15,113 nucleotides of DNA from an uncultured Thiomargarita sp. (GCA_964344525.1 CAYFOB010000038.1:1-15113), one strand, 5' to 3'. Positions 3,834-12,628 are shown, counted from the first letter of the stretch. Numbers and translations are program-made. Notes: generated by a model from the sequence alone, not told the origin.

Positions 3834-3872
3834 GCGCTTTTTTTGTTTGAATCAATATTTTTAGAATAAATG

Positions 3873-3928
3873 CCTTATCACCTATTACGTCAAATTGTTT
3901 GGCAAAATATCACAATAGGTGATAAGGA
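3873..3928. repeat. 14-bp perfect inverted repeat (CCTTATCACCTATT ... AATAGGTGATAAGG) with a 28-nt spacer, between btuB and the next gene
   Basis: Arms at 3873-3886 and 3915-3928 are exact reverse complements. It lies 40 nt after the btuB stop and about 75 nt before the ATG at 4004. Confidence 0.6.
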
Positions 3929-4003
3929 TAAAATAAATATTTGAGGTTTTATTCTGTTTCTTGTCAAATTTTTTTGATTCAAACAATTTTTCGGAGAAAA
4001 ACA

Positions 4004-4732
4004 ATGCTTGATACCTTTCGGATTTATACAGAGCTCAAAGAAGGCATGGAAGCCGCAGCTGCAGAAAAAATAGCCAGTATGATAGGCTTGCTATATGATG
4101 AGCTGCGCCAAAGCGTCACCAAAAATGAGTTTAATGACTTAAAAGCTGTTGTTAAGGATTTGGCTGAGGCTCAAAAAGTCACAGAAATGCGATTAGCAGA
4201 GTTGGGTGTGGCTCAAAAAGCCAGCGAAAAACGATTAACACGCCTTGAAGAAGTTATTACAGAGTTGGGGGATACCCAAAATCGATTAGCCAAAGCTCAA
4301 GAAAAAACGGAAAAAACCGTTCAGCAATTGGCTAGACAAGTCGGTGGTTTAAGTGATGTGGTGGGTGGCGATTTAGAAGAGATTGCCTATATTGTGTTGC
4401 ATGACGTGTTAAAACGAGAATTGGGTTGGCAAGTCGGTGTTCTTGAACGAGCCTGGCAAACTTGGGGACAAGAACCAGAGGAGGTAGATATTTTTGGTCA
4501 AGCAAACGATCCAAAAGAACCCAGTAAAACCATTTGGATTGTTGGTGAAGCCAAACACAATATTTCTATAAAAGAGGTGAAAAAGTTCATCAAGCAAGTT
4601 GAACGGGCGCGAGAACATTTAAGCTGTGAAATTTTTCCCGTTGTTTTTTGCTATCGCGCTCGTCCAGAAGTACAACAAATGATTATTGATAGTGGTATTC
4701 GGTTGGTTTTTTCTTATGGTAAATTGTTGTAA
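4004..4732 (+). CDS. Hypothetical protein: N-terminal coiled coil (about 130 aa) plus a C-terminal PD-(D/E)xK-like (restriction-endonuclease-fold) module
   Basis: ATG at 4004 has GGAG (3993-3996) 7 nt upstream; the track's longer start at 3941 has no RBS. The coiled coil contains degenerate 15-residue repeats (AEAQKVTEMRLAELG / VAQKASEKRLTRLEE / LGDTQNRLAKAQEKT). The C-terminal segment has D...E.K spacing (VDIFGQANDP ... IWIVGEAKHNI) followed by a helix (KKFIKQVERAREHL), typical of the PD-(D/E)xK core. The family assignment is from pattern only. Confidence 0.65.
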   Translation: MLDTFRIYTELKEGMEAAAAEKIASMIGLLYDELRQSVTKNEFNDLKAVVKDLAEAQKVTEMRLAELGVAQKASEKRLTRLEEVITELGDTQNRLAKAQEKTEKTVQQLARQVGGLSDVVGGDLEEIAYIVLHDVLKRELGWQVGVLERAWQTWGQEPEEVDIFGQANDPKEPSKTIWIVGEAKHNISIKEVKKFIKQVERAREHLSCEIFPVVFCYRARPEVQQMIIDSGIRLVFSYGKLL

Positions 4733-4834
4733 TTTTCCTTCATGCCCAAGATTCCAAAAAGCCTATTTCCATGCATGCATAAATAAATATGGCAACGAAC
4801 CAAATCCTCCTATAGTTTTTCATAGAAATTTACC

Positions 4835-9552: not shown

Positions 9553-12516
9553 CTACATCGTATTGCGTTCCCTGACAATACGAATACCTTCCCATGCAGA
9601 CAAGTTTCCTTCTTCTCGTGCGATGATAATTCGCAGCCACCAATGAACCTTTAAGATTAATTCTTTCTCTTCAGCGTAACTGGATTTAGAGCGAAGTGGC
9701 ATTTTTTCTCTTCTTTCCAATTCATTATATCCAATCCAAATGGTTTCTGCGATGCGTGCCACATATTTTCGCCAGGCTTGTCGCATTTCTTGTAAACTTG
9801 TGGCAGTGGCGCAGATTAATAAATCGCTGAGTAAGGCAGCGACTCGTTGGATAGTTGGATTGGATTCCGTTTGTTTGGCTTGTGCGAGCTGTTGTGCCTG
9901 TTGTAAATCATCATTTTCAATGGCTTTACAGATATTGCTGTTCGGATCAGCGCGGGCAAGAACACGAGCATGGGCGAGGGCACGGTTGCGAACAAAGTTA
10001 CGGTCAATGGCATAGCGAGCACTATCGACTGCGTTGTTGGCGCGATCAACGGCATAGCGAGGATTGCCATCCTTATCATCAAAGGCATCAAGGGCTTCGC
10101 TAGTGCGATCTAAAGCATCATAAACGAGGGTGTCGTTGTCGAGGATAGCATATTCTACGCTTGCCCTAGCGTTGGTCAGAGCGCGGTTAATCGTGGCTCG
10201 GGCACTGGTTAGGGCGTAGGTGTAACGGTCCGAGTGGGGCGGACCAACTTTGTCAAAGGAATGAAGGGCACGCATGAGATCGTCGAAGCTGCTGCGAACC
10301 AGGGCTGGCGCTAGGTCATGGGCGAAGTCACGAGCAAGGGCGAGAGCAGTAGCGCGGGCGAAAATCTGAGTGCGTACCAGGGCAAGGGCATGACCAATGG
10401 CGCGGTTGATGGCTAAATCTGCATGTTCGAGGTTGCTAGTGATATTCTTTATATCAACAACAACATAGTTTTGTGGAAATAGCAGGCGAGAAAATTTTTT
10501 AATATGTGTATAAGCACGTTGCTCATTATTTTTTGTTAACCAACTCAATTCGTAACTGTCTTCAGTCCGACACAAAGTAGCTAATTCTTTCGTTTCGCTG
10601 GTGGCAGGATGCTCCTTTGCCTCAGCAAGCGATGGTAAGCGATAACGTACGGAACCTCCTTGTCGCCGAGTCAACCAAGCGCAAAAGGCTTCCGCATCAA
10701 GGGCGCGTATTCCGCAAACTGCGGCTTGGGCAGTCCCCTTATGAAAAGTGTATCTTGTCCAATGATCTGGCTGATAATATTGACTTTCTGCGCGGGATTC
10801 ATCCAAAAATAATTGGTATTCTGCGTAGGTGATATAGTTTAGATCAATGTCATAGTCCTCATCAATGCGTTGTAAACTTTTGAGGCGTTGACTTAAGCGC
10901 ACTTCTGCTGCCAATTTGCGACGTTGGGATTCGGAAGATTCAAGATCAGCTGTCAGGCGATTTTGAACTGCCACACGTACTGACATTTCTAAGGCGCGGG
11001 CTTCTTCTAAACAATTGGCTGCCAAAGTTAAGGCAGACACATTGCCATTATCAAGACAGGCTTGTACCACAGGCGTGGCATCTGTTTGTGCAGCATACAG
11101 TAAAAAAGTTTCATACCACCAGCTGTTATTGACGGATTTCTGCCAATTAATTTTAAGCTTGTTGTCCAATATATGGGTAGCCGCAAGATATTCTTGAAAA
11201 GTTAAATGGGCAAAACTCCATTGCATGGATTCGCGTTCCAATAATAAGCCACTACTGGCTTGCACATCACTTAAAAAATTTTGGACTGCCTCACCAGTCA
11301 CCCCCACACGTTCTAAAGGCAGTGCAATAATTTTCATAGCATTTTCTGTGTCAATCGTGCGCGCTTTATGACGCATCATTTGAAAAGCCAGTGGTTGTAA
11401 AACAACACGCTTTTGAGCTGCTGTCAAAGCATTTTGTATTCCTTTTCCGGCTGCCCAATGTCCAAGCAATACCTCACTAATTTCGGCATACAATTCCACC
11501 CGCCGCCCCGGTAATTGTCCCCGATAGCGGTGTACCATCGCAATCATAGTCAGCAATAAGGGATTTACAGTCAATGCGCTCAAAGTGGGGGCTTCTCGCA
11601 AGCGTTGCATTAAATCCCTAGCCCCCTGCTTAGCACGATGCCGTACGCCTTCATCAGTCTTACCCCCAAATGCGGTGATTTCGTTAGCTAAATACCAAGC
11701 ATCAATAAATCGTTGGACTTGCGCGGTATTAAAAGGTTGCACTTCTAAAACCTGAACACCTTCCACCGGAGCGCTAAGATAACCCTGTGGGCGTGCGGTA
11801 ATAATAAAATGACAACGCGAATATTCAATGATTTGTTTTTCTACCCAAGCGGATACGGCTTGCCGCTGTTTTAAATCAGCAACTTCATCCAGTCCATCCA
11901 ATAACACCAAACACTTGCCCTTTTTTAAGCGCTGTTCAAACCACCGCCGCGGTGGTTTTAATTTGGGGTAATTTTCTTGATTAGCAAAATGCTCATAAAT
12001 TAATTCTGCCAAGCCAAGCGGTGCATCTCTCCCAGAGGATTTTTCCACAACAATTTGTTCTATATGATTCCGCAAAAATAATAAAATGGGTACATAAGGA
12101 AGCAAATAATATTGGCGTTGTTTATTTGCCGCAAATATTAAAGCCATATATTGCAACAGCGTTGTTTTACCACATCCGGGCGCACCAATAATCGCTAAAA
12201 GTAACCTTTTGTGCCTGGTGAAACGCCAAAAATCCCAAATAGGGCGATTGCCAGTCACTTGTTTAGCTGAAATGGGATCAAAATTGATTTGTTCTGAATT
12301 ATGGGATGGGGCAATGCGTAGTTCGACAAAAACTTGCTCAATTTCAAGAGTAAATGTGCCTCTGGTACGTAATCCACGTACATTAAAAACACGATGCTCA
12401 TAAATGACGTGTTGGTTGTAGCGACGGCGAAAACGAGAAAGCGAAATGCTCACAGCGGCGCCTAACCATTTAAGAGTTATATTAATTTTGTTTATAACTT
12501 CAACAATTTTTTTCAT
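9553..12516 (-). CDS. NACHT-family STAND NTPase with a partial FGE-sulfatase (SUMF1/formylglycine-generating-enzyme-like) domain and C-terminal Ala/Arg-rich repeats (987 aa)
   Basis: Walker A AIIGAPGCGKTTLL; Walker B CLVLLDGLDEV (NACHT-type hhhhDGhDE). FIITARPQ sensor region; winged-helix and helical region. FGE-like block ITYAEYQLFLDE...QPDHW...AVCGIRALDAEAFCAWL...VRYRLPSLAEAK matches FGE VTNAEY.AFV...PVVGVSW.DA.AYC.WL...YRLPTEAEWE. Then come about 200 aa of A/R/L-rich short repeats (RAIGHALALVRTQIFARATALALARDFAHDLAPALV; PRYAVDRANNAVDSARYAIDRN). No N-terminal effector domain is recognisable. Confidence 0.9.
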   Translation of the reverse strand: MKKIVEVINKINITLKWLGAAVSISLSRFRRRYNQHVIYEHRVFNVRGLRTRGTFTLEIEQVFVELRIAPSHNSEQINFDPISAKQVTGNRPIWDFWRFTRHKRLLLAIIGAPGCGKTTLLQYMALIFAANKQRQYYLLPYVPILLFLRNHIEQIVVEKSSGRDAPLGLAELIYEHFANQENYPKLKPPRRWFEQRLKKGKCLVLLDGLDEVADLKQRQAVSAWVEKQIIEYSRCHFIITARPQGYLSAPVEGVQVLEVQPFNTAQVQRFIDAWYLANEITAFGGKTDEGVRHRAKQGARDLMQRLREAPTLSALTVNPLLLTMIAMVHRYRGQLPGRRVELYAEISEVLLGHWAAGKGIQNALTAAQKRVVLQPLAFQMMRHKARTIDTENAMKIIALPLERVGVTGEAVQNFLSDVQASSGLLLERESMQWSFAHLTFQEYLAATHILDNKLKINWQKSVNNSWWYETFLLYAAQTDATPVVQACLDNGNVSALTLAANCLEEARALEMSVRVAVQNRLTADLESSESQRRKLAAEVRLSQRLKSLQRIDEDYDIDLNYITYAEYQLFLDESRAESQYYQPDHWTRYTFHKGTAQAAVCGIRALDAEAFCAWLTRRQGGSVRYRLPSLAEAKEHPATSETKELATLCRTEDSYELSWLTKNNEQRAYTHIKKFSRLLFPQNYVVVDIKNITSNLEHADLAINRAIGHALALVRTQIFARATALALARDFAHDLAPALVRSSFDDLMRALHSFDKVGPPHSDRYTYALTSARATINRALTNARASVEYAILDNDTLVYDALDRTSEALDAFDDKDGNPRYAVDRANNAVDSARYAIDRNFVRNRALAHARVLARADPNSNICKAIENDDLQQAQQLAQAKQTESNPTIQRVAALLSDLLICATATSLQEMRQAWRKYVARIAETIWIGYNELERREKMPLRSKSSYAEEKELILKVHWWLRIIIAREEGNLSAWEGIRIVRERNTM

Positions 12517-12583
12517 GGAATGCTCGTTGGTTAAATTTTTTCAATCGGCACACCGTAGTACATCGTTAAGTTGTCAAATTATT

Positions 12584-12610
12584 GGAGTACAAAGCAACGC
12601 TTTGTGCTCC
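12584..12610. other. Hairpin GGAGUACAAAGC-AAC-GCUUUGUGCUCC in the cysG/NACHT intergenic region
   Basis: 12-bp stem with one G.U pair. No adjacent U-tract on either strand, so terminator function is unproven. Confidence 0.3.
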
Positions 12611-12628
12611 AAGTACTAGGGGTGTGTT

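Follow-up and report, generated by a model that had tools for sequence, protein, structure and literature searches.

Between btuB and cysG, the 15,113-nt contig CAYFOB010000038.1 (GCA_964344525.1) of an uncultured Thiomargarita sp. carries a block of about 8.8 kb (positions 3834-12628) that encodes a PD-(D/E)xK nuclease-fold protein, a HAMP-GAF membrane sensor, a major vault protein (MVP) and a NACHT NTPase, and the question raised by this locus is whether these genes arrived together as one accessory element. The window analysed here is the entire contig, which belongs to a draft assembly. An earlier note, made from the sequence, had read the block as an accessory insertion. The accessory part of that reading stood, as the placement of the interior genes in relatives is patchy and their order is not conserved, but insertion as a unit did not, as the genes do not travel together and neither mobility genes nor a tRNA in the window nor an empty site in the relatives was found. 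We consider it probable that the block is native-looking flexible genome, shaped by turnover of its genes one at a time at a synteny breakpoint, the 3′ end of cysG, and not the product of a single insertion.

Gene order beyond cysG and btuB

The flanks of the block are housekeeping genes, as first described, with a riboswitch-controlled btuB on the left (TIGR01779) and dsrE2-tusA-cysG on the right (Pfam). The comparison of gene order around them was run as set beforehand, a conserved order being the sign of an ancestral arrangement, and the order was found not to be conserved. A scan of the genome collection with CysG returned six Beggiatoaceae metagenome-assembled genomes (MAGs; Thiomargarita, Ca. 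Parabeggiatoa and Thiotrichaceae) at 83-89% identity, and a metagenome scan with BtuB returned four relatives at 61-67% identity. The order dsrE2-tusA-cysG was kept in all six cysG-bearing relatives (L001-L006), and in all six the DNA ceases to align at the cysG stop codon. Four of these, L001-L004, carry enough sequence downstream of cysG to be informative; the genes found there differ in every one (Table 1), and neither btuB nor MVP occurs within 10 kb of cysG in any of them. On the other side, a cobalamin riboswitch precedes btuB in the three BtuB relatives scanned (3/3), and in one relative (L089) four SPFH-coiled-coil paralogues stand in tandem upstream of btuB, as such a gene does in the window. 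Downstream of btuB, the four BtuB relatives carry cobU/cobQ/cobS/cobT, a giant kinase or unknown genes, and never cysG or the interior genes. The premise that btuB formerly lay next to cysG was therefore not upheld: the two genes are adjacent in none of the ten relatives (0/6 cysG-bearing, 0/4 btuB-bearing), and no empty site was found among them. The breakpoint would begin exactly at the 3′ end of cysG, in a Beggiatoaceae chromosome; the affiliation draws on the identity of cysG, tusA and dsrE2 to their counterparts in Beggiatoaceae MAGs and on TAACTGA repeats.

The interior genes do not keep company with one another elsewhere. Eight other MVP loci were compared, four of Beggiatoaceae type (L081, L084, L085 and L175), three from cyanobacteria and one from an Anaerolineae MAG; in seven of the eight, the flank extends for 5-10 kb to one side or both, and L175 has less than 600 nt. 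The Beggiatoaceae-type loci are 80-87% identical to the window MVP and the cyanobacterial and Anaerolineae loci about 70%. MVP is a stand-alone gene in all eight, and in the flank available none of them has a neighbour in common with the window interior or flanks, and none has a NACHT gene. The MVP relative nearest to the window, 83% identical at the nucleotide level, resembles it at positions 6695-9229 only. The closest homologues of the sensor (66% and 57% amino-acid identity) lie in unrelated neighbourhoods, as does a 79% homologue of the nuclease-fold protein, and L004 has a NACHT homologue past its cysG. The four large genes were never found together outside the window, each relative giving them new neighbours. 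Turnover gene by gene would have left five monocistronic units with unrelated roles, the fifth being a 53-aa open reading frame (ORF) between MVP and the NACHT gene; all four interior genes of the first description are present, but this fifth candidate had been overlooked.

Edges, composition and contig integrity

A single accessory island inserted between formerly adjacent btuB and cysG, its ends marked by an inverted repeat on the left and a hairpin on the right, would account for the patchy interior genes and for a gene order that is not conserved in relatives. The left edge does carry a perfect 14-bp inverted repeat, which proved real, although it ends at 3927, one base before the end first assigned to it, and a direct 10-nt match, TTGTCAAATT, at 3961 and 12571 brackets all five genes. 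The arms of the inverted repeat fold with z = -2.7, and no second copy of an arm was found in the window or in 166 fetched loci. Its single-copy state led us to drop the idea of a miniature inverted-repeat transposable element or other element end, and it reads best as a btuB-distal hairpin. The hairpin at the right boundary was confirmed, at 12582-12612 and on the cysG strand, and is the terminator of cysG. Direct repeats common to both boundaries are A/T-rich 10-mers only, compatible with chance; two such 10-nt boundary matches arise in about 8% of shuffles, so that TTGTCAAATT, itself A/T-rich, was rejected as a target-site duplication.

Mobility functions and a foreign composition are likewise lacking from the block. 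No integrase, transposase or relaxase was detected in any window ORF by Pfam, NCBIfam and PADLOC scans, and there is no tRNA or tmRNA in the window, so that the earlier statement that integrase, tRNA and direct repeats are absent holds, the boundary 10-mers being unconvincing. Intergenic DNA makes up 695 of the 8,795 nt of the block, which leaves no room for element debris. An island-type composition was not found: relative to the 6.3 kb of flank used as reference, G+C content is 42.7% in the block and 41.8% in the flanks and tetranucleotide use correlates at r = 0.93, and G+C at third codon positions is 0.33-0.38 in the interior versus 0.36-0.45 in the flanks. Like islands associated with integrases or tRNAs, the block consists of variable genes between recognisable core genes; unlike them, it lacks a recombinase, a tRNA, an att repeat and a shift in composition, and its cargo is not co-inherited. 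Together with the missing btuB-cysG adjacency, these observations make a unit insertion unlikely.

The junctions between the genes are well formed. Folding against shuffled sequences placed a stable hairpin 3′ of every interior gene, as the earlier description of separate hairpins and terminators had it, and for the hairpins at 4835-4867 and 9284-9313 none of 200 shuffles folded equally well. The latter lies between convergent genes and is a bidirectional terminator for MVP and the 53-aa ORF. Separately, a 19-nt motif, TAKAGYTTTTCAKAKAAAT, occurs on the plus strand in three intergenic regions of the window, at 4811-4829, 6654-6672 and 14949-14967; copies adjoin terminator hairpins and lie upstream of the sensor gene and of MVP, and a further copy is present in L090 (9177-9195, minus strand).

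The same features bear on the possibility that the draft contig joins unlinked regions and that the block has no biological boundaries at all. The window is a whole 15.1-kb contig of a draft assembly, every neighbour differs in the relatives, and the cysG gene contains a 13-bp deletion that could be an assembly error. However, composition does not change along the contig, the intergenic regions are compact, every junction has a well-formed terminator, and the contig lacks a repeat that would invite a mis-join. In addition, both flanks are syntenic over several genes, the left one with L089 and the right one with L001-L006. An assembly artefact is thus very unlikely as the origin of the block.

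The deletion in cysG, overlooked in the first description, shifts the frame and divides the gene into two overlapping ORFs; it lies between 13636 and 13672 and was identified by comparison with L001, L002 and L004, each of which has a single intact frame. The C-terminal cysG ORF of the window begins at an in-frame Met directly past the deletion. Either the siroheme synthase gene is truly split or a pseudogene, or the assembly is in error here. L001, the closest cysG relative, carries a degraded second cysG segment at 17072-17404, which hints at a past duplication or rearrangement. At the other flank, btuB probably starts at TTG 2016 or GTG 1998 rather than at ATG 1878; a GAGGAG ribosome-binding site lies upstream of TTG 2016, and the product has the plug and beta-barrel domains (Pfam).

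Table 1 Features of the window and of the region downstream of cysG in four relatives
Feature	Position	Strand	Evidence or remark
SPFH/Band_7 gene, 29-aa coiled-coil tandem repeats	1-1633	-	runs off the left contig end
Cobalamin riboswitch, upstream of btuB	1728-1923	+	Rfam RF00174, 96.9 bits vs gathering score 31.5
btuB, TonB-dependent vitamin B12 receptor	~2016-3833	+	TIGR01779, 623 bits vs cutoff 599.7
Perfect 14-bp inverted repeat, 27-nt loop	3873-3886 / 3914-3927	+	40 nt past btuB stop
242-aa coiled-coil and C-terminal PD-(D/E)xK-fold protein	4004-4732	+	
15-bp hairpin, then T-rich tail, 3′ of nuclease-fold gene	4835-4867	+	z = -3.3
HAMP-GAF membrane sensor	4917-6611	+	Pfam HAMP_2 (two 44-aa units), GAF
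Intrinsic terminator of sensor gene, hairpin and U-run	6612-6659	+	stem, then UUUUUC
Major vault protein (MVP)	6708-9257	+	Pfam Vault families, MVP_shoulder
12-bp G+C-rich hairpin between convergent MVP and 53-aa ORF	9284-9313		z = -4.4
53-aa helical ORF	9317-9478	-	GGAG ribosome-binding site
NACHT (STAND) NTPase, partial FGE-sulfatase-like module, helical repeats	9553-12516	-	Pfam
cysG terminator hairpin	12582-12612	-	17 nt past cysG stop; z = -4.2
cysG, siroheme synthase, two ORFs	12629-13995	-	Pfam NAD_binding_7, Sirohm_synth_M, CysG_dimeriser, TP_methylase
tusA	14104-14352	+	Pfam TusA, 2.7e-25
dsrE2	14373-14843	+	Pfam DrsE_2, 8.1e-53
L001, downstream of cysG: AriA/AbiLi-like ATPase, Septu (truncated PtuA, PtuB), AbiL (AbiLi, AbiLii)	11426-19730		
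L002, downstream of cysG: methyltransferase, FGE-sulfatase and VWA proteins			weak PADLOC matches only
L003, downstream of cysG: unknown gene, then purB, lytB, histidine kinase, secretin			no defence match
L004, downstream of cysG: unknown gene, Sel1/TIR-like gene, NACHT-FGE homologue			

The vault protein and the NACHT gene beside it

The identification of MVP was confirmed along the whole protein. It matches the Pfam families Vault, Vault_2, Vault_3, Vault_4 and MVP_shoulder, is full length with repeat domains, shoulder, cap helix and cap ring region, and its residues 9-844 align end to end with residues 6-853 of a solved animal MVP (995 bits, E = 2e-298, 55.5% identity). Given this full-length identity of 55% to the animal protein, the stand-alone MVP would most likely build a vault-like protein shell. 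The shoulder domain of MVP is SPFH-like, and an SPFH/Band_7 gene sits at the left end of the contig; the C-terminal coiled coil of its product is made up of near-identical 87-nt (29-aa) tandem repeats.

The history of this gene was addressed by comparison with its homologues. Among the candidates scored in the protein search, 2,946 matched MVP at E<1e-10. The window MVP is 77-87% identical to Beggiatoaceae-type and 69-73% identical to cyanobacterial homologues, and outside the Beggiatoaceae-type clade the closest named homologues are those of filamentous cyanobacteria and Anaerolineae (~70%). A neighbour-joining tree without bootstraps placed it within a clade of ten Beggiatoaceae-type sequences, which adjoins an Anaerolineae-type group and lies apart from the cyanobacteria. 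Within this clade, identities of 77-87% are similar to the divergence of CysG, suggesting that MVP has long been resident in the family, with shuffling of its position, and is not a recent import. Searches of plasmids gave no match, those of phages gave only distant matches to the MVP shoulder and coil (~26% identity) in huge uncultured phages, and no mobile vector for MVP was identified by either.

Bacterial homologues of MVP have been published from gliding Oscillatoriales, Myxococcales and Cytophagales (Daly et al. 2013, PMC3762200; bioRxiv 10.1101/872010). As in these gliding filamentous bacteria, the window MVP is full length, more than 50% identical to animal MVP and encoded by a stand-alone gene; unlike the published hosts, the host here is a gammaproteobacterial large sulfur bacterium, and the protein falls outside the cyanobacterial clade in a clade of its own (in the same unbootstrapped tree). 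The NCBI label on the cyanobacterial homologues is "colicin uptake protein", and no paper pairing MVP with Beggiatoa was found in the literature searched. Gene sharing between Beggiatoaceae and cyanobacteria, as well as TAACTGA intergenic repeats in marine Beggiatoaceae, has been described (MacGregor 2015, PMC4679880). The window resembles that case in both respects, with an MVP about 70% identical to those of filamentous cyanobacteria and with the TAACTGA heptamer three times in tandem at 13998-14018 (plus strand), between the cysG start and tusA. It differs in that its MVP looks long resident in the family.

The NACHT gene at 9553-12516 on the minus strand was borne out by Pfam (NACHT, 3.3e-15), which also revealed an FGE-sulfatase module (1.1e-4) that the first reading had overlooked. 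The match to this module is partial, covering profile positions 35-119 of 255. Walker A (GAPGCGKT) and Walker B (LVLLDGLDE) motifs are visible, and the C-terminus is conserved ("AWEGIRIVRE"). The N-terminal 100 aa have no Pfam match and no recognisable effector domain, comparison with solved STAND proteins gave no detectable similarity, and the sole PADLOC match of the protein is to the P-loop, mad8 at 1e-4. At E<1e-30 its family comprises 2,244 cluster representatives, many of which carry an extra N-terminal hydrophobic segment of about 50-65 aa that the window protein does not have. A truncation of the 5′ end at the cysG junction was considered and set aside, since P0362, the representative nearest to it at 64% identity, is a short protein too (987 aa). 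A class of STAND proteins with FGE-sulfatase sensors has been described (Nature 2026, PMC13581612), and the window protein resembles it in having a NACHT P-loop followed by an FGE-like module and in belonging to a very large family; it differs in having only a fragment of the FGE domain and neither a recognisable effector nor the N-terminal hydrophobic extension. The protein is probably a receptor in conflict or immunity, in which the FGE-sulfatase-type module would be the sensor. The 53-aa ORF, for which neither the fetched loci gave a homologue nor the family scans a match, may not be a real gene.

These genes could be held together by function, either as a defence island of nuclease, sensor, MVP and NACHT or, more narrowly, as an MVP-NACHT vault module. 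MVP and the NACHT gene are convergent neighbours 296 nt apart, the eukaryotic vault contains the NACHT protein TEP1 (bioRxiv 10.64898/2026.05.01.722283), defence genes occupy the equivalent site in L001 and L004, and GAF-type signalling genes lie near MVP in three of nine loci. However, the genes lie on different strands and end in separate terminators, PADLOC returned nothing credible, the NACHT protein is without detectable similarity to solved STAND proteins, the GAF proteins near MVP differ in architecture, and no NACHT gene lies in the flank available at the eight other bacterial MVP loci. One functional system, broad or narrow, is therefore highly improbable. The parallel with the eukaryotic vault extends to an MVP that aligns over all domains and a NACHT protein encoded next door; the eukaryotic particle, an MVP shell with TEP1, PARP4 and vault RNA, differs in that no match to TROVE, WD40, DUF4062, PARP or vault RNA was found in the window. 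That MVP and the NACHT protein, perhaps with the 53-aa ORF, form a prokaryotic counterpart of the eukaryotic vault, MVP-TEP1-like and set in a defence hotspot, is extremely doubtful, and the adjacency of the two genes at this single locus is probably coincidence. If it were true, an MVP-NACHT module in a defence hotspot would tie the origin of vaults to bacterial immunity.

Other interior genes and the region past cysG

For the first interior gene, both the coiled coil and the PD-(D/E)xK fold that had been proposed were recovered. The 242-aa protein has the alpha/beta core of restriction-endonuclease-like folds, and across 35 sequences of its family, which is large and multi-copy, E182-x-K184 and E159/E160 are invariant, and the position of window D162 is N in many homologues. 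The protein is probably a nuclease. The segment coding for its coiled coil includes 21- and 42-nt direct repeats (4155-4281), and lengths in the family (P0122-P0240) step by 7 aa (221, 228, 235, 242, 249, 256 ... 284 aa). This variation in heptads suggests repeat slippage that tunes the length of the stalk.

The sensor had been described as a CHASE3-HAMP-GAF protein without an output domain. Pfam supported HAMP_2, GAF and the absence of an output domain, but not CHASE3: PF05227 gave no match at E values up to 10 in sensor residues 1-250 and is missing from the precomputed Pfam lists of the window sensor and of its full-length homologues (P0242-P0249). Some sensor paralogues do list PF05227, and the periplasmic domain of the window sensor is helical, is shared with chemoreceptors and has no family assignment. 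The two HAMP_2 units are encoded by a 132-nt repeat, 78% identical, at 5874-6060, and the closest homologues are about 40-60 aa longer, a difference that could reflect the gain or loss of a single HAMP unit. The output-less protein would presumably pass its signal to a partner whose gene lies elsewhere; one relative has, close to a 4HB-HAMP-GAF hybrid kinase, a paralogue that also lacks an output domain. GAF signalling genes lie one or two genes from MVP in the window (4917-6611), in Allocoleopsis and in the Anaerolineae MAG (L171 3750-6704 and L174 11831-14611), with differing architectures, and this proximity is probably chance in GAF-rich genomes.

If the block arose by turnover beyond cysG, the relatives give an idea of what else comes to lie there. 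Defence content past cysG is strong in L001, where PADLOC identified PtuA (1e-44), PtuB (3e-26), AbiLi (6e-100) and AbiLii (2e-31), consists of TIR-like and NACHT genes in L004, and is weak in L002 and absent in L003. The NACHT-FGE homologue of L004 is 60% identical to that of the window, has the same orientation and lies 4.3 kb past cysG. Beyond it in the same locus, tandem repeats of 27, 39 and 74 nt form dense arrays (18240-19047), and about 2.8 kb is without any ORF of at least 70 aa. From Septu and AbiL in L001 and the TIR-like and NACHT genes in L004, we infer that defence-type genes may repeatedly land, or be exchanged, in the 3′ flank of cysG.

In the pangenomes of E. coli, Pseudomonas and Vibrio, defence islands are known to gather in hotspots that have conserved core genes as their anchors. 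The region past cysG shares with them a conserved anchor, dsrE2-tusA-cysG, and adjacent content that varies and includes Septu/AbiL (L001) and STAND/TIR-type genes (L004 and the window). It differs from them in being anchored on one flank only, in the housekeeping genes of L003 and in that no PADLOC system matches the window genes; on current evidence, neither MVP nor the HAMP-GAF sensor counts as a defence gene. The locus as a whole is of known kinds, with a bacterial MVP and a STAND-FGE receptor in a region that is variable or possibly a defence hotspot.

Several points weigh against turnover at a cysG-anchored site as we propose it. Only one flank, that of cysG, is demonstrably conserved. 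The comparison was made without genomes of the same species or genus, and a closer relative outside the sample may still have the site empty. The basis for a hotspot, two of the four informative relatives, is thin; the NACHT gene of L004, at 60% identity only, may be a paralogue; and PADLOC gave no credible match for any window gene, returning coiled-coil and P-loop noise. A mis-join in the draft assembly is a further, though very unlikely, alternative. The biochemical activities of the interior genes, as given above, are predictions from sequence.

As an island, the block is ordinary, and the side results are more useful than the island itself. The gene order of Beggiatoaceae is scrambled down to single genes, and the 3′ flank of cysG may provide a usable anchor for cataloguing variable and defence content in these uncultured giants. 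The notable item of the locus is MVP in Beggiatoaceae. A full-length MVP in large sulfur bacteria adds a third major bacterial host group, gliding filaments again, and bears on the puzzle of vault origin and function in host cells large enough for cryo-electron tomography.

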